IMG/VR virus record: IMGVR_UViG_2681813421_000002
Coordinates: 22,586-86,585 of that record
Direction: 5' to 3' (one strand)
Origin: a virus
Taxonomy: Duplodnaviria; Heunggongvirae; Uroviricota; Caudoviricetes
DNA length: 64,000 bases
The notes below the pieces were generated by a model. It was not told the DNA's origin and searched no databases. It saw only the letters and a program-made list of their open reading frames with translations. Position 1 is the stretch's first letter. Every line of letters begins with the position of its first letter. Below are positions 21,259 to 52,453 of the stretch, piece by piece. The position numbers and the translations under genes are program-made.

Positions 21259-22661
21259 TCACTATTACCAAAGAACGCCTGCTGACAATCCAGCAGTGGC
21301 GCGAAACATACGGACCTGGTAGCAACGTTGTACTGCCAGCAGAAGAAGCGGAAGAACTGGCACGAATTGCTCTGGCATCGCTGGAAGCAAAACCAGTTGC
21401 TTATATTTTCAAACATCCGGCCGGGAAATTATTCTGGGCTTTAACGGATGAAAGCAATAAAGAGCAAGCGGACGTTATTCCTGTTTATGCTGCCGCGCCT
21501 GCGTCGGTTGTGCCGGATAATGCATCAGAGCCTCTTGCTTATGCTTACAAAGAGCTTACGCCTGAGATTATGCGCAACCATTTAGCTGTATTCGAGCGAT
21601 ATGGAATAGCCCCAAACGATAGCTCTACCACAATTCAGGCACTGCGAATCGCGCTGGATGGTATAGAGCGGAGCGACGCCATGCTTCAGTCCGGAAACTT
21701 TCGGGAAAACAAGAATTCGTCAACCAATAATTTTCGGGAAATCGCGGAAACGTCAACCAACTATCCGGTAATTCCTAGTGAGCTGTTGTCCGCAATCCTG
21801 AAGGTTGCCAAGATTCGTGCCGATTTCGATGATTTTGACGGTGACAGGCGAGGTATCGATGATTGTCTGGATGAGGCTGAGCAAGAGCTTATCGTTACCA
21901 TTAACAAATATGCCAGTCAGTTGGCAGCAGAACCGATAGCGACTAATGACGTTCGAGAGCAAACAGCCGTTCCGCCAGTTCCGGTAATGCAGGCTGATGT
22001 CGCGCAGGCAATTGAAAAACTCAAACGGAAATTAGTGGAATGCAATCGCTATAACTACTGTGCAGATGCAGTTAAAGGCGTAGAGGATGCCTGCCGTGCT
22101 GTTAGCTATAGCCAAGCCGACAATCAGCCAGCATCTGGCAACCAGGCTGCCGAATCCAATCGCGGTAATGAGTGGACCGGCAATCCTGATATTGATAACG
22201 CCATCATCATGCTCGATCGCATAGATACGCTGGAAAGTTGCGATGATGACCGTATTGAGGCTGTTAAGGCTGTTTTGCGTAGACTGGCTGGCAACTATCC
22301 GGATATTCCGGATAGTTCGGTGCCAGCGCCAGGAAAGGGCGTCACCGGTGAACGTATCCGCATTAAGCCGCATGTTTATCGCGAACTGGTTAACCGTCTC
22401 CACGATACAGCGATCAAGTGTGCTGGCACCCAGCAATTACGAGAAAGAATTAGCCGTGTTTTGGGCGACGTTATTACACCAGATCATCATAAACAAGCCG
22501 AGAAAAGTGACCTGGAAAGGTGTCACCTTGAGGCGGCATTAAACATTAAGCCGGGGCATACGCTTGGCATTATTGATGCACTATTGGTTCATAAGATGGC
22601 CAGGGCTTTATTGCCGCTGGTGGCTGAAAAGCATGAGGTGGACCATGCCAACGAAAGCTGA
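21255..22661 (+). CDS. Hypothetical protein with internal tandem repeat and C-terminal motif shared with 13113-13724
   Basis: 468 aa; repeated FRENK/FREIAE segment; YRELVNRLHD...GTQQLRER. Confidence 0.5.
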   Translation: MITITKERLLTIQQWRETYGPGSNVVLPAEEAEELARIALASLEAKPVAYIFKHPAGKLFWALTDESNKEQADVIPVYAAAPASVVPDNASEPLAYAYKELTPEIMRNHLAVFERYGIAPNDSSTTIQALRIALDGIERSDAMLQSGNFRENKNSSTNNFREIAETSTNYPVIPSELLSAILKVAKIRADFDDFDGDRRGIDDCLDEAEQELIVTINKYASQLAAEPIATNDVREQTAVPPVPVMQADVAQAIEKLKRKLVECNRYNYCADAVKGVEDACRAVSYSQADNQPASGNQAAESNRGNEWTGNPDIDNAIIMLDRIDTLESCDDDRIEAVKAVLRRLAGNYPDIPDSSVPAPGKGVTGERIRIKPHVYRELVNRLHDTAIKCAGTQQLRERISRVLGDVITPDHHKQAEKSDLERCHLEAALNIKPGHTLGIIDALLVHKMARALLPLVAEKHEVDHANES

Positions 22662-30923: not shown

Positions 30924-30946
30924 GCCCCGCATCGCGGGGCTTTTAT
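30924..30946 (+). terminator. Rho-independent terminator
   Basis: GCCCCGC-ATC-GCGGGGC followed by TTTTAT. Confidence 0.55.
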
Positions 30947-32451
30947 ATATCCAGATCCGGCATTTCGATATCCGCCAGAACCTGATCTCGGAAAGTTGCC
31001 ATTTCGGCACCAATATCTTCATTAGCAGGCACATAGTCCACCAGCATAGTGAAGCAGTAGGTATCCCATCGGTCAGGCGATTTGATGTTTAGCTTTTGCC
31101 GCATGTGCTCTTTGCGCATCATCGCCATTTTCCCTTCCTCATTCAGTAAAAAGGGGATTTTTGACGCTTGCTCTGCCGTTTTAGGGTCACTGTCTATCCG
31201 CATACGCCCTGACTTTATGGCATCACGCGCCATAATATTTGCGTAGGCACGCTGATTAACAAATCGCTCCCTGTCTTTGTTCGCAAACATGGGTTTTCCC
31301 CACCGAATACGTACCGGGTTCGCACCACGACGTACCAACTGCGCACACGTATCAGAACCAAAACCATCGGCATCAACCGCGATTGTTATATTCGGGTATT
31401 TTTCCGGCGTACATTCGTTATATATAAAGTCAGCAAAGGCCAATGGGTCCATAGTGCCAGGCATCTCCATTACCTTAAAGTTAACAACGCGCCGCTTATC
31501 CCTGTGACCAGATACCTTGCAGATGTTGAGGACCGACTTATCTCGCCCATTACCAACGTCAGCCGTTGCCACCCATCCCCAGTTTTTCTCCAACAACACC
31601 TTGCGGCGAGCAGCGCGATCGCATTCATCACGACCAAGCAAATAGCCGTTAATTTCTCGTGGGAACTGACCAAGCACCTTGACCATATACTCAATAGAAT
31701 CGCGCCCACCATATTCCAGAAGCTTCTGCCTGATGAATTGTGGTGTGACGAACGGTGATTCTTCCGAGTTAAGAACAATTGCTGTCCAGATCCCTTTCGG
31801 GTTGTCTGGGGTTTTTGCTTGAGAATGGTGCGAATCGTAGAAATAACCACTTGGCCTTGTTGGCTGGGATAGCATCAACATCCGGTTATCTTCTTCAGTA
31901 AGAGCACCGGTCATTACGCCGATCGCCTTATCAGATATACCAGATGCTTCATCCAGAATTAGAAGCAAATGTGCCGCATGTTCCCCCGCCAGCGCTTCTT
32001 CGTTGCCGAGTCGATAACCTTTGCAGAGAACTTCCCAAATCCCCTTACGGGAGCGCTCATAAAACATGGTGTCAGAGAGGACAAAATAGGTCTGCAACCA
32101 CCCATGACGCTTAACTGCATTCGCCCAATACTGTTTAACGTATTTGAATACGCCTGTTTTTACCTGGCCTATCTTGTTAGCAACAATGATGACACGGGCA
32201 TCGGGGAACAGGATCATAAAAATCAACAGCAACATCGCGGTAAGGGACGACTTCCCAGTTCCGTGTCCGGACGTGACGGTCGTCCTACTCCCCGTTTCCT
32301 GCACGGACTGAATGATCTGCTGCTGCTGGTGGGAGGGGAACATCCCAAAAATATCGACAACAGCCTGGGTAAAGTTGTAGCGGTATTTGATTACCATATC
32401 GCGCCAGCGTGGATCGCTGGTGACGCATTTAATCTTGCGCCCTCCAGCCAT
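30943..32451 (-). CDS. pacB: Terminase large subunit (PacB-like)
   Basis: 502 aa; Walker A GHGTGKSS, Walker B LLLILDEA, C-terminal nuclease-type acidic residues. Confidence 0.85.
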   Translation of the reverse strand: MAGGRKIKCVTSDPRWRDMVIKYRYNFTQAVVDIFGMFPSHQQQQIIQSVQETGSRTTVTSGHGTGKSSLTAMLLLIFMILFPDARVIIVANKIGQVKTGVFKYVKQYWANAVKRHGWLQTYFVLSDTMFYERSRKGIWEVLCKGYRLGNEEALAGEHAAHLLLILDEASGISDKAIGVMTGALTEEDNRMLMLSQPTRPSGYFYDSHHSQAKTPDNPKGIWTAIVLNSEESPFVTPQFIRQKLLEYGGRDSIEYMVKVLGQFPREINGYLLGRDECDRAARRKVLLEKNWGWVATADVGNGRDKSVLNICKVSGHRDKRRVVNFKVMEMPGTMDPLAFADFIYNECTPEKYPNITIAVDADGFGSDTCAQLVRRGANPVRIRWGKPMFANKDRERFVNQRAYANIMARDAIKSGRMRIDSDPKTAEQASKIPFLLNEEGKMAMMRKEHMRQKLNIKSPDRWDTYCFTMLVDYVPANEDIGAEMATFRDQVLADIEMPDLDI

Positions 32452-33815
32452 TAATCATCCTCCGGCGGTTCTATCGCGATATCTTCATCTCCGGCGTCAT
32501 ACCCTGCATCAGATGCATCATAATCACCGTAAATTTCAGCCGTTGCCGAAGGGTCAATATCCAGCTCTTCGTCGTTGGCCTCGAATTCTCCAGCTTTACG
32601 CTCGCCATTGCGGTCGTAATCTCCGCACCCCAATTCTTCAACAATGGTTGCCACATCCGCCCGGCGCTCTGCCAGCCATTGCGGATGGTTAGCCTGAAGC
32701 GTCGCAAACTCCCTTGCCTCTTTGTCCAGCTGTTCATCATCAACATCATTGACGTCAGAAACAGGTGGTTCGAGAAGAGTGATAGCTTTCGCCGCGCGCG
32801 CCGCGAGGATAGCCGGGACGCTGACCCCCTGGCGCTCGATGTATTCAGCAACACCGATATCATCCAGTTCCTCGCGCTCACGCATACGTATAGCGGCGGC
32901 GATAACTCTGGCTGCGCGTGCGTCAGCGCCAATGCGATATTCAATCTCTTTGCCACGCTGTTCGGCCTGTAGGCGTGCTAATTCGAGTTTTTCTCTGGCC
33001 TCAGCCTCTTTGAATGCTTGCTGGCGAGCGCTCTGACGAAGCTTTTCATCCCCCTGTCGCAGCTTTTGTTCGGACTGATATATAGCTGCCAACCTACTGA
33101 TAAAATCATTCATGTAGTAGGCAGCGTCACTGATTAGACCGAGAAGGCGCTGCCCAGGGTGCATTCCTTCTGGCTCTTTATCGCCCAAGGCGTCTATTTC
33201 CGCCTGTAGACGTTCGGCCTCCTGATCAACAATGCTTTGATACTGAAGTGCGCGCTCTTGCGCCATTTGAATTGCTAACCGCAGGTGTTCTTCTGCGCCG
33301 TTCTTCATCATATCGCGAGCCACATTCGTAGTGGGCAATGTGGCACGCTGCACAGCACCGCCAGGGATCATTGCTGAAGATCCCTCAATTTTTGGGGCGC
33401 TTTTATCTTCTTCGGGGATCATTTTCGCCATTTTTTCGCGCAATGATCTCCTGACAGATTCTTTTATCTCATTGTTATTATTTGCATTATTTTCATGATC
33501 CGAAGTTTTCTTTCTCGGCATACTTCGGAAAGAACCTGCGCCCTGCGAATTGTCAATTTCTGTAAATTTTGTTTTTTCTGCACCCTCTTCCAGCTTTTTT
33601 GTTGCTCTTCCCGCCCGTTTTTTTTCAGGTGATTTGGTGCTTTTTTTTGTTGTCTTTACCTGCGACCGCACCTCATTTTTTTTCATATTGAGATGCTTTC
33701 TGGCTGTATTGAAGCTAAGGCCATGCTCCTCACAGTATTCCTTTACAGTGATCCCTTTTTCTTCACGCAACGCTATAAAGCGGGCGCGGTGCTCCTCCCA
33801 ATTAACCAGACTCAT
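32451..33815 (-). CDS. pacA: Terminase small subunit/pac-recognition protein (PacA-like)
   Basis: 454 aa; N-terminal HTH-like region, acidic C-terminus, 1-bp stop/start overlap with pacB, internal GATC cluster. Confidence 0.7.
   Translation of the reverse strand: MSLVNWEEHRARFIALREEKGITVKEYCEEHGLSFNTARKHLNMKKNEVRSQVKTTKKSTKSPEKKRAGRATKKLEEGAEKTKFTEIDNSQGAGSFRSMPRKKTSDHENNANNNNEIKESVRRSLREKMAKMIPEEDKSAPKIEGSSAMIPGGAVQRATLPTTNVARDMMKNGAEEHLRLAIQMAQERALQYQSIVDQEAERLQAEIDALGDKEPEGMHPGQRLLGLISDAAYYMNDFISRLAAIYQSEQKLRQGDEKLRQSARQQAFKEAEAREKLELARLQAEQRGKEIEYRIGADARAARVIAAAIRMREREELDDIGVAEYIERQGVSVPAILAARAAKAITLLEPPVSDVNDVDDEQLDKEAREFATLQANHPQWLAERRADVATIVEELGCGDYDRNGERKAGEFEANDEELDIDPSATAEIYGDYDASDAGYDAGDEDIAIEPPEDD
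33360..33505. other. pac-like packaging site: cluster of five GATC-containing elements within pacA
   Basis: GATC at 33366, 33379, 33417, 33445 and 33497, several as TGATC(C/T) in both orientations; reminiscent of the P1 pac hexamer repeats. Confidence 0.4.
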
Positions 33816-34204
33816 AAAGCAACACCACGCTTTTTAACGGCGGCATTCCACAGCTTATTCGCCATGTCCACCAGCTCTCGTTGCTCTTTTCGCGCCTGTT
33901 CGACTGATTTCCTGCTACAGTTTTTAACCAGTAAGCTACCGTATTCAGGCGTGCGCCCGCGCACCTTGAACTGATATCCGTTCAGGCCATGCAACCAGTA
34001 TTTCCGTGGGTAAACACGATCATCAAGCTCACAAATAGCTCGGCTTGACCGCACAAAATGCCGAATGATGTTGGTTACACTTACGCGTGAAACATGAAGG
34101 TGAGGATATTTTTCTTTAGCTAGAGTGGTGATTTCGGTGACTGTCAGATAGCAGTCAGCCCTAATCATGATATCCGCAATTTCTGCGCTGCTGATATGCT
34201 CCAT
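33812..34204 (-). CDS. Lpa-like late promoter activator (positional call)
   Basis: 130 aa gene immediately upstream of pacA with an operator-like motif in its promoter, as for P1 lpa. Confidence 0.4.
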   Translation of the reverse strand: MEHISSAEIADIMIRADCYLTVTEITTLAKEKYPHLHVSRVSVTNIIRHFVRSSRAICELDDRVYPRKYWLHGLNGYQFKVRGRTPEYGSLLVKNCSRKSVEQARKEQRELVDMANKLWNAAVKKRGVAL

Positions 34205-45200: not shown

Positions 45201-48200
45201 GACCAGTCCACCAGCGCCGTCTTCTTCGGCCTCGTCTGCATCATCTGCCACTTTACCGCCTGCGACTTTTGGCAGGGCATCAGCAATAGCTTTTACCTTG
45301 TCTGCAAGCTCAACGGGGAACTGGAATGTAATCGCACTGGCATACAGATCCGGATCTATAGCAACCTTATCCATGTCGCGGATGATGGAGAAGATGAAAT
45401 CATCCGGTTTGTCGTTAGTGATATGCCCGTTTTCATCGACTGTCAGCTCATCATTGCGACTTAACTCCTGAGCACGCTTACGAAGCTCTTCATAAGCAGC
45501 CTCCTGCTCCCCTGTCATCGGGATCTGCAAGGTGTTCTCGATGATATCGGGAATTTTAACCGTCGCTCCGACATCTGCGGCAGTCTTCAGAGTGGTCCAA
45601 CGGTGGAAAATACCACGCAGACCATCAAGGTTCTGGAAGCCCACCAGCCCCTGCTTCTCTTCCACCTCACCGGAAATTTTCTGAACCTGAACTGTGGCTG
45701 TTTTGCCGAACACGCGAACGAAATCATCCGGCGTAACAATACCCATGCGCATCCACTCTTCCTGCGGAATGACAGTAGACAGCATGTTGAAGGCATCAAT
45801 CGGACTGTTCACCAGCGGAGTTGCCGTCAGCATGACTACACCACGCCCGTTGTTGCGTTTCATCATGTACGCAGCTTTTACAGCCATGTCGCGGGCCATC
45901 TTGGATACTGCCGGGTTAGGCAAATATGCCAGTTGTCCCGCTTCACGCCCGGCATTAAAGGAGTTGCGGTAATTATGCCCCTCGTCGGCAATCACGCTAT
46001 CGAAGTTCATATCCTCAAAGTACGGGATATTCTGCTTCTTCGTTGTACCGGTATTCGCGGCCTGATCCTTAATCTTGTTCTTCTTCTGCGCATCACGGTG
46101 TTTACCGGACGCCAGGTCAAGACGCCCCATTTCCACAGCATTAAAGACAGCTTGCTGTGAGTTCTCCTCGATGGTTTTTTCTCGTAGCGGGATAGACGCG
46201 AATTGTTCTTTTGTCATGATGACCGTTCGCCAATTTGACGACGGGATCATGTTCATACGCTGAACGATAACGGCGCTGGCGGACTCTTTCACAACATTTC
46301 TGGTAAGAGGCTGCCCGTTACTGTCGAGGCGTGGTTCGCCATTTTCATCAAGCACCGGCGCGGTCAGAATATTTCCGCTGTCATCACGAACTTCATCCAA
46401 ACCGATAAACATCATATTGGCGAAGGCATCAGCACTGTAGAAACTCTGTGCCTCGTGATACCAGTTCTGATAAACCGCCTTCGGAACAACAATACACGTG
46501 CGTTTAGTGCGACCTGTTTCGAAGTTATACGCCTCAAGCGCAAGCGCGGTCGTGGTTTTACCCAGCCCGGTACCAAATCCCATGATGCCGCGCCCATCTT
46601 CTGACAAGCGCCGAACTTCTTCATTCTGATAAGTAAGAGGAATGCGCTTTCCACTAAGCCCTTCCAGGCCAAGCGGTGCGTCAGAATGTGTGAACGGAAT
46701 GAAACCATTGAATGCGTCGTTATAGTCACGGGCTATCTGATCCGCCTGCGGGTGGGTGCGTAACCAGTCGTTAAAGCTAACTTCCAGTTGAGCAATTTTA
46801 TCCAGGTACTCGTTAGCGTTCTGCCCACGCGGTTTAACACCGTTCAGGTAGTTTTCTAACTGGTTCAGGAAGCCGTCTTTATTGTTGGCCTTCTTGAACT
46901 CATTCCCGTTTTTGCCGTTTACGGTTCGTAGCTGATAGCCGGTAAATACCCCGTCCTTACCTTCGTAATCGTCCGGAGATACCAGAATGCCATCGACGAC
47001 CTTCAGATCAGGTTCAGTGTACTTAAACTCGTCATAGCCCTGCTCTGCCAGGAACTCTTTTATCAAGCGGCGATCCAGCCAGCGGGCATTCAGATTAACG
47101 GTGACTTTATTTAGTGGCGTGAAAATGCGTTTCTCTTCGATTTTCGCCAACTGACGCTCAAAGTTCGCTTTCTGCTCACCTGTTGACGCATCACGCCAGC
47201 CCACCAGCAGTGCTGTTTTGGTTGCAACATCGCCGCTGGTGGCGCGGTCCATCGGCAGCAGACAGCCATACCCATCAATAGCGATATCATCAAATTTCGC
47301 CAGGTATTCAAGGGCCGCGTCGTCGTCCTCTGGCAGTTCACCAGCAAACGCCTCACGAAAGTCGCCCAGCGTTATAGGATTAAGGGCTACATCACTAAAA
47401 AGATGTGCTATCACTTGTTCAGGACGCGTAAAGTCAATACCGGCAGCGCCATCCGTTACATCAAGTCGCCCTGCCAGAAGGTCAGAAGTGGAACCATCCT
47501 GTTTCACATTGCCAGTGAACGTCATCCAGTTTTTAGCGCCAGCTTCAGCAAGCCCATTCAGCTTAATCGCGTGCGGTGGTCCATACTTCGCAACTTCTGC
47601 TGCCGCCAGGCGGGATGCATCTGCCAGTTTGTCATCAACGTTCACCCCCAGGTTACGCAAATCAAGTGCCTTGTTGATCAACTGACCTATCAGTGCACCG
47701 CGCATAACGCGCTCCCTGTCTTTTTCTCGCTGCTTGCCAGCAAAGCGAATCATTGCTGCCACTTCATCACTGACAACCGATGGATAGTCAGACGCGATCG
47801 CCGATATCTGGTCCCATGACAAAGCCAGAATGCCATTTGTTGACTGAAACGCGATCTGCAGATCGCCAAACGTCGAAACACCATATCGACTTACATCAAG
47901 CGCGGAGGATTTGGTTGTCGTGTCCTTAACCCATTTCAGACCATCAAACTCATGCCAGATACCGCCTACAAGGCGTTTATCGCCCACTTTCGCGCCCTGC
48001 CATGCCTGAGTAGTTACGCCGAGCAAATCCCAATTGATGCGACTATCAAAGCGACGAGATAGCGCGGTTTTCATCGACTCATTGGATACACGACCGTCTT
48101 TTTTCACCACCAGGGTATTGCGGAAGCTGGTACGTTCCATGTCGCCGTAAACAAATCGCTTCCCTTCGGTTGTAAACCATTTTCCTTTGAGGAAGGTATC

Positions 48201-50682: not shown

Positions 50683-50906
50683 CAGTGTGCCTCCGCAATT
50701 CCGGGATTGGTAATATTGCGATACCAGGGATTAGTGTTTGGTTGTGGGGAAGTAGAGAAACGACCAGTAAGAACACCATACTGATCAGGGATCAGAGAAC
50801 GGGCTTCTTTTTCGGTTGCGGCAATTGCGAAGTGATCGCAGTGTTTTTGCAGGGAGTGGAAACGCCAGATAAATTCCGGGCGCGAGCAAGGATTGGCATT
50901 AACCAT
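50682..50906 (-). CDS. icd: Icd-like (Ash family) small protein, second copy
   Basis: EFIWRFHSLQKH...AATEKEAR; the track ORF extends further 5-prime into what I read as noncoding RNA sequence. Confidence 0.45.
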   Translation of the reverse strand: MVNANPCSRPEFIWRFHSLQKHCDHFAIAATEKEARSLIPDQYGVLTGRFSTSPQPNTNPWYRNITNPGIAEAH

Positions 50907-52282: not shown

Positions 52283-52453
52283 CAGATAGTTCCGTGAAAA
52301 AATCTATCTACCGTATAAATCTATGGCAGTGGATTTATACACCCAAAAAGCCGCTTCTCAGCGGCTTTTGCTTTTTTGGCAGTCGCTACCGGAGCAGTGA
52401 CCGCGATCCTACTCGATCCCATCCACCAGGATCAACAGTGTATATAAATACAC

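Follow-up and report, generated by a model that had tools for sequence, protein, structure and literature searches.

A conserved array of GATC repeats inside pacA as the likely pac recognition region of D6-type, P1-related phage-plasmids

The 64,000-nucleotide (nt) stretch of DNA analysed here (IMG/VR record IMGVR_UViG_2681813421_000002, positions 22,586 to 86,585), hereafter called the window, is by its sequence a D6-like plasmid prophage related to P1. Inside its pacA gene, which encodes the recognition subunit of the pacase, lies a cluster of five GATC sites, i.e.: sites for Dam methylation. We consider it likely that D6-type P1-related phage-plasmids use this cluster as the recognition region for packaging initiation (pac). 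By analogy with P1, it is probably the equivalent of P1 pac in the D6 lineage, its recognition word having diverged and its architecture being simpler. The cluster has the mark of a functional cis-acting DNA element, in that its nucleotides are conserved beyond what coding constraint accounts for.

Five GATC sites are conserved in pacA

The five GATCs start at window positions 33366, 33379, 33417, 33445 and 33497, hence five sites in 135 base pairs (bp), all of them within pacA. A preliminary description of the window, made from its letters alone, had reported five GATCs in about 140 bp, falling into groups at 33366-33420 and 33445-33500, and these coordinates proved exact. It had also noticed several TGATC(C/T) contexts in opposing orientations, which holds for four of the five sites (TGATCY), two per strand: the minus strand carries TGATCC at 33365 and 33416, and the plus strand TGATCT at 33444 and TGATCC at 33496, so that the two groups are oppositely oriented. 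The fifth site (33379) reads GGATCT/AGATCC. The placement of the cluster inside pacA was equally correct, since the sites fall in a minus-strand open reading frame (ORF), 32451-33815, whose DNA matches pacA of Escherichia phage D6 (AY753669, MF356679) with 99.3% identity.

To follow these sites among relatives, we gathered D6-lineage pacA genes from plasmids and from IMG/VR, obtaining 26 distinct sequences, of which seven were aligned. The pacA of Salmonella pSa1423-90k (NZ_MK356557.1) was left out of the conservation tests. Compared with related genes it carries numerous small indels and 18 in-frame stops, most likely a product of sequencing error and not the mark of a pseudogene. The lineage is diverse: in elements from Shigella, E. 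coli, E. marmotae and E. fergusonii, pacA identity is 71-75% overall and falls to 60-63% across nt 150-480 of the gene.

All five GATCs are found at identical pacA positions (316, 368, 396, 434 and 447) in the seven aligned sequences, whose identity to the window across nt 150-480 drops to as little as 61-62%. In that interval 42% of columns are invariant, the figure for third positions being 34%, and invariant tetramers that do not overlap a GATC are rare (16/292, or 5.5%, versus 5/5 for the GATCs). The naive joint probability of finding all five invariant is approximately 5 × 10−7, and phase-matched controls gave similar values. GATCs farther downstream in pacA are not common to the D6 lineages. 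The longest invariant runs of the linker are AAATGATCCC, AATGATCCC, AATTTACA and GATCATT, and GGATCA, the form of site 1 that is invariant in the seven aligned sequences, ranks among them. The GATC of site 1 is present in 26/26 distinct sequences, and the complete set of five in 24 of them, one site having been lost in each of the other two.

These two losses concern site 2 in one sequence (L022) and site 3 in another (L046), both otherwise 95-100% identical to the window in this region. They may represent natural pac-down variants, decaying prophages or sequencing errors.

GATC density in the window

From the clustering of the sites one could suspect a local excess of GATC without any function. 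The window contains 232 GATCs (about one per 276 bp), slightly fewer than the mean of 254 in shuffled sequences, and the total of TGATCY is also at expectation. The preliminary description had suggested comparing the cluster with the window background, and by this measure it does stand out: its GATC density is about 10 times that of the window, and it is the tightest group of four and of five sites that the window holds, the next independent group of five spanning 349 bp versus 135 bp. Nevertheless, the enrichment is not statistically compelling on its own. A five-site cluster this tight appeared somewhere in 24% of uniform random placements and in 26% of dinucleotide shuffles, giving a window-wide p of about 0.25. 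In the pre-specified interval homologous to P1 pac (pacA nt 130-540), GATC reaches 12.2 per kilobase (kb) versus 3.6 per kb (binomial p=0.023). Because density is not significant window-wide, as judged by the scan statistic, we set it aside as evidence, and the case for the element rests on conservation in relatives.

It is this conservation that decides against chance. Shuffled windows and overall counts of GATC and TGATCY would be compatible with an accidental cluster. An accident would however have to explain positional invariance (5/5 against a 5.5% background) across lineages that are about 60% identical locally, the retention of five sites in 24/26 distinct sequences, the recurrence of similar clusters in nine related loci (see below), and a location matching that of P1 pac, an interval that makes up 0.6% of the window. 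Positional invariance together with retention in relatives effectively refutes a functionless excess, to which we give almost no credence.

Neither elsewhere in the window nor in the other 27 kb of D6 did we find a comparable rival cluster of GATCs or of P1-type hexamers. Smaller GATC groups do exist, at 52405-52433 (three in 29 bp), 50783-50837 (three in 55 bp) and 47676-47864 (four in 189 bp). These three groups have no flanking word in common and lie, by collinearity with D6, near the pro, repL/icd and darB regions.

The constraint acts on DNA and not on the peptide

The GATCs are under strong purifying selection at the DNA level. The five synonymous third positions that fall within them are all invariant, compared to 34% of third positions regionally. 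At site 3, the adjacent proline codon varies (CCC, CCA, CCT or CCG) while isoleucine stays ATC. At sites 2 and 4 relatives have changed the encoded residue (Arg to Gly and Gly to Arg, respectively) and kept the GATC. The repeated 9-bp word, AATGATCCC, is present both forward, where it encodes Met-Ile-Pro, and reversed in another reading frame, where it encodes Gly/Arg-Ser-Leu/Phe. The same word being kept in both orientations and in different frames, the constraint must be on DNA and not on peptide.

These observations bear directly on an alternative in which selection maintains peptide elements of the PacA linker (Asp-His, Ser and two Met-Ile-Pro) and the GATCs follow from the codons used. 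It is true that the repeats encode the residues conserved in the linker, and Met-Ile-Pro is found twice in the Enterobacter PacA as well. Yet codon choice would leave third positions free within the GATCs as it does for the proline next to site 3, it would not preserve the GA of GATC through Arg/Gly replacements, and it does not lead to one DNA word specifying unrelated peptides in two orientations and two frames. Moreover, the P1 hexamers can be synonymously recoded with PacA function in trans retained (PMC10028697). We hence judge a purely peptide-level explanation to be very improbable.

Anatomy of the repeat array

The elements of the array are listed in Table 1. Exact and one-mismatch copies of the word were recovered independently by a repeat search. 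Sites 2 to 5 are nearer to the perfect word in diverged lineages than they are in the window. Successive GATCs are spaced 52, 28, 38 and 13 bp apart, and copies within an arm are 51-52 bp, or roughly five helical turns, from each other. The inner and outer pairs of copies have nearly the same midpoint (33432.5 and 33433). Between the inner copies, the length of the 18-bp spacer is conserved and its sequence varies among relatives. The fifth GATC (33379) is 13 bp from the last copy, with which (site 5) it forms a near-palindrome in one relative, L008 (GGGATCATTGCAAATGATCCC).

Table 1. Features of the candidate pac region and of the genes around it, in window coordinates.
Feature	Position	Strand	Details
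Whole GATC-repeat element, candidate pac recognition region	33364..33502		pacA nt 314-452, codons of the variable PacA linker
Site 1, CATGATCCG (7/9 match to AATGATCCC)	33494..33502	+	GATC 33497-33500; pacA nt 314-322; gene strand GGATCA (Asp-His)
Site 2, AATGATCTC (8/9)	33442..33450	+	GATC 33445-33448; pacA nt 366-374; diverged lineages carry the perfect word AAATGATCCC
Inner spacer, 18 bp	33424..33441		Holds the dyad centre (~33432.5-33433) of the four motif copies; candidate cut position
Site 3, AATGATCCC (9/9)	33415..33423	-	GATC 33417-33420; pacA nt 393-401; Met-Ile-Pro; in the longest invariant run of the linker (AAATGATCCC)
Site 4, GATC	33379..33382		Gene strand GGGATCT; reverse GAAGATCCC (7/9); pacA nt 434-437
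Site 5, AATGATCCC (9/9)	33364..33372	-	GATC 33366-33369; pacA nt 444-452; Met-Ile-Pro
Conserved block, AAAATTTACAGAAATTGACAA	33550..33570	-	pacA nt 246-266, upstream of the cluster
Distal single copy, AGTGATCCC (8/9)	33747..33755	+	GATC 33750-33753; pacA nt 61-69, region coding for the helix-turn-helix (HTH)
pacA	32451..33815	-	Small/recognition subunit of the pacase, 454 aa (gene 1365 nt), HTH-like N-terminal region
pacB	30943..32451	-	Large terminase subunit, 502 aa, 56% identical to P1 PacB
lpa	33812..34204	-	Late-promoter activator; Pfam BPP1_LPA (PF25716), E=1.4e-56

A further single copy of the word lies apart from the array, and may or may not be part of the element. All D6-lineage sequences (26/26 distinct ones) keep its GATC, and its surroundings, GGGATCAC, are invariant in the seven that were aligned. 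The Enterobacter gene encodes the same Gly-Ile through GGC ATT, with no GATC.

Other sequence features of the region were considered too. No promoter-like site was found in the cluster. A weak terminator-like hairpin within it is on the non-gene strand and was disregarded, as was an inverted repeat at 33315-33348, the complementary arms of which appear by eye to be lost in one aligned relative (L007). Closer to the start of the gene, the 32-nt run AGAAAGCATCTCAATATGAAAAAAAATGAGGT (33670-33701, pacA nt 115-146) shows no change among D6-lineage pacA genes whose identity elsewhere is 71-95%. No other invariant run in the first 660 nt of pacA comes near it in length. It closes the HTH-like region and holds an A8 tract.

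GATC clusters across the pacA-pacB family

We compared nine pacA-pacB loci: that of the window, those of P1, Enterobacter, Serratia and Photobacterium, and two each from Citrobacter and Vibrio. The loci beyond the window (L003 and L011-L017) include Enterobacter p60214CZ_1 and Serratia PL17, and GATC clusters are unannotated outside P1. GATC is enriched 3- to 6-fold in pacA nt 130-540 in 9/9 loci, and an Ideonella outgroup with a different small terminase showed no GATC enrichment. The usual form consists of two arms 75-200 bp apart, often with a 12-bp spacing inside an arm, and with flanks that are specific to the lineage: GTGATCA in Serratia, TGATCG in V. cholerae, and TGATCC in D6 and Enterobacter. 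The preservation of a GATC core from Escherichia to Vibrio suggests, from the sequences compared, that methylation-gated packaging may be old and conserved in this phage-plasmid family.

The Enterobacter locus (L011) bears on the surroundings of the array. Its PacA is 55% identical to the D6-type protein, and it has in common with it sites 2, 3, (4) and 5 and the TGATCC word. It has in addition a left arm with three GATCs at nt 157-181, about 200 bp upstream, which D6 does not have. Midway between its two arms, where P1 has its integration host factor (IHF) site and its cuts, lies a conserved block (33550-33570 in the window). The core of this block, TTACA.AA..TGACAA, is common to the D6 lineages and Enterobacter at the DNA level, despite different encoded residues (TKFTEIDN and SKLTKADK). 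The block may be part of the pac region, as an alternative cut or binding site, and the D6 cluster may be either the whole site or the right arm of a site that is cut farther upstream.

More tentatively, and with somewhat less than even confidence, we propose that the D6 lineage carries a distinct version of the P1 signal. This version would be a single compact, dyad-symmetric array of polar AATGATCCC words with neither an IHF-bent central spacer nor a left arm, and the whole P1 supercluster, from Escherichia to Vibrio, would have inherited from its ancestor a GATC core in the PacA linker, flanked differently in each lineage.

A non-packaging role for the GATCs was also weighed. The array could be a conserved element responding to Dam and SeqA, serving the sequestration of new DNA or a methylation-dependent control of pacA/pacB. 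Invariant GATCs show that there is selection on Dam sites and leave its purpose unspecified, the 13- and 28-bp spacings would suit SeqA bound to paired hemimethylated sites, and some control could be useful given the coupling of pacA to the early gene lpa. Against this, the cluster holds no promoter-like site. The conserved flanks extend past GATC to a 9-bp word in both orientations and change with the PacA lineage, implying a sequence-specific protein and not SeqA or Dam alone. The homologous GATC clusters of P1 are, furthermore, the mapped pac site. For these reasons a Dam/SeqA role is less parsimonious, and we find it unlikely.

Methylase, proposed mechanism and candidate cut positions

The orf63 of D6 encodes a Dam-family methylase (TIGR00571, 249 bits with a cut-off of 115; Pfam MethyltransfD12, E=1.9e-56). 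No ORF with a DPPY-type motif, i.e.: no Dam gene, was found within the window.

Following the P1 analogy, PacA, through its HTH-like N-terminal region, and PacB would bind the repeated 9-bp copies of AATGATCCC, each of which contains a Dam site. The four copies would act as two outward-pointing pairs symmetric about ~33433, with the fifth GATC beside the last copy. The pacase would then cut within the cluster or just beside it, starting a headful packaging series. Given a GATC in every repeat and a Dam-family methylase among the genes of D6 itself, adenine methylation probably gates the cutting, as proposed for P1 (PMC10028697): the site would be bound and left uncut until fully methylated. 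The start of pacA overlaps the stop of lpa, and the pacase is therefore probably made along with this early gene; the gate would delay packaging despite such translational coupling. We infer PacA binding, cut position, packaging direction and methylation control from the likeness to P1.

Candidate cut positions are 33424-33441, 33487-33496 and 33550-33570. The second of these corresponds to a break in the draft genome 2537562191 (IMG/VR), where the end of contig L049 and the start of contig L040 meet with a 10-bp overlap at pacA nt 320-329, directly after the GATC of site 1. The chance of such a placement is roughly p=0.1, in one genome. The break could reflect physical DNA ends at pac, or be a coincidence. 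As a general proxy for virion ends, contig ends were set aside: this was the sole break, the sequence runs through the site at the other 27 IMG/VR loci, and seven metagenome hits were uninformative.

Identity and gene context of the window

The gene order lpa-pacA-pacB-c1, annotated in D6 and P1 alike, is kept in the window. The overlap of the lpa stop with the pacA start leaves no intergenic room for a P1-style LPpac promoter. D6-type PacA is 21% identical to P1 PacA (pairwise E=6e-10), a relationship that tblastn did not pick up at 1e-5. In a published survey the D6-like P1-g2 group was scored as lacking pacA (PMC7969092). Contrary to that scoring, the D6 group has a true PacA, with a putative recognition word of its own. 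Plasmid records matching the D6 group number 121, widely distributed in E. coli, Salmonella and Shigella, and a profile search of the genome contigs with the PacB profile returned a single locus.

The repA-like and repL genes of D6 are located away from the GATC cluster. At its left end (1-1200, compared with D6 61500-64500, L020), the window begins within an hrdC-like gene, directly after D6 orf63 (the Dam-family gene) and orf64 (a putative cytosine methylase). Identity to D6 is about 90% there and about 96% around pacA.

Significance

If confirmed, these data would define a pac site for the D6 group, a widespread one among E. coli, Salmonella and Shigella. A defined site would permit D6-based phagemids and transduction tools orthogonal to those of P1, and synonymous recoding would offer a way to cripple the helper phages, a step already taken with P1 (PMC10028697). 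Should the GATC core indeed be ancestral, Dam-gated packaging would be a trait of the family, and pac specificity would co-evolve with a fast-diverging PacA. The finding is thus useful for engineering and for understanding pacase specificity; it is expected biology and would not surprise a specialist, and the D6 pac region may already have been discussed in print.

Comparison with P1 pac and other known systems

We compared the array with P1 pac using the annotation of NC_005856 for coordinates and a published summary of the site (PMC10028697; site described by Sternberg & Coulby). In both phages the repeats are inside the 5' third of pacA, in an lpa-pacA-pacB operon, within the variable PacA linker and downstream of the HTH-like N-terminus. 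They consist of repeated short words, each with a Dam site, in two groups, and both P1 and D6 encode a Dam-type methylase. In P1, synonymous recoding of the pac hexamers cuts the titre approximately 9-fold (PMC10028697).

The recognition words differ, as the preliminary description had anticipated. The P1 word is TGATCA/G, found at pacA nt 195, 202, 214 and 229 and at nt 325, 337 and 348 (7/7 sites). The word in the window is (A)ATGATCC(C), polar, in the arrangement <- <- -> <- ->. Its five sites comprise three TGATCC, one TGATCT and one non-TGATC, and none is TGATCA/G in the orientation of AATGATCCC. The D6-type cluster (GATC sites at nt 316-450) also lies about 100 nt farther downstream in pacA than the mapped P1 pac (hexamers in nt 195-353). 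The claim of a P1-like organisation consequently survives in part: location in the pacA linker, Dam sites and grouping in two are borne out, and the compactness of the P1 arms, the wide gap between them and the IHF site are not, the window having five dispersed sites, a 24-bp inner gap and no conserved IHF consensus.

Several of these differences weigh against equating the cluster with pac, and we gather them here with other points of the same kind. P1 has seven hexamers in tight arms (four within 39 bp, three within 27 bp) and the window five loose GATCs over 135 bp. The P1 arms are about 90 bp apart, with the annotated IHF site (pacA nt 256-268) and the cuts (nt 276-285) in the centre, midway between them, and the inner gap of the window is 24 bp between GATCs; in terms of layout, the window has groups of 2+3 symmetric about ~33433 with 18 bp between the inner 9-mers, versus 4+3 with ~90 bp in P1. 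A scan for the IHF consensus WATCAANNNNTTR with at most one mismatch found none in pacA nt 1-570, a consensus search that leaves room for weak sites. As seen above, the density of GATC is unexceptional window-wide. The Dam homologue of D6 maps just before the start of the window, and so outside it, which leaves a copy in this particular element putative. Because Enterobacter has an extra left arm, the D6 cluster may be one arm only, with the cut upstream near 33550-33570. Finally, D6 GenBank records have no annotated pac feature. Taking these points together with the conservation of the repeats, we still hold it likely that the cluster is the pac recognition region.

Two further candidates for DNA bending were rejected as conserved features. 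The sole perfect IHF match, at pacA nt 574-586, is lost in relatives. Upstream A-tracts (pacA nt 133-244) stem from lysine codons and lie in the least conserved part of the linker, which has fewer lysines in diverged lineages.

Beyond P1, dense and conserved GATC clusters in which methylation gates a DNA transaction are found at E. coli oriC and in the heptamer GATC repeats of P1 oriR. Those clusters adjoin DnaA boxes or iterons and an initiator gene, whereas the cluster of the window is free of iterons and lies inside pacA. This location recalls instead the pac sites of P22 (gene 3), SPP1 (pacL/pacC/pacR) and Sf6, which are embedded in small-terminase genes of phages that package by the headful mechanism. 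No methylation gating or Dam-site build is known for these pac sites, and their small terminase subunits belong to different families; the likeness is that the recognition site of the small terminase subunit is carried within its own gene.

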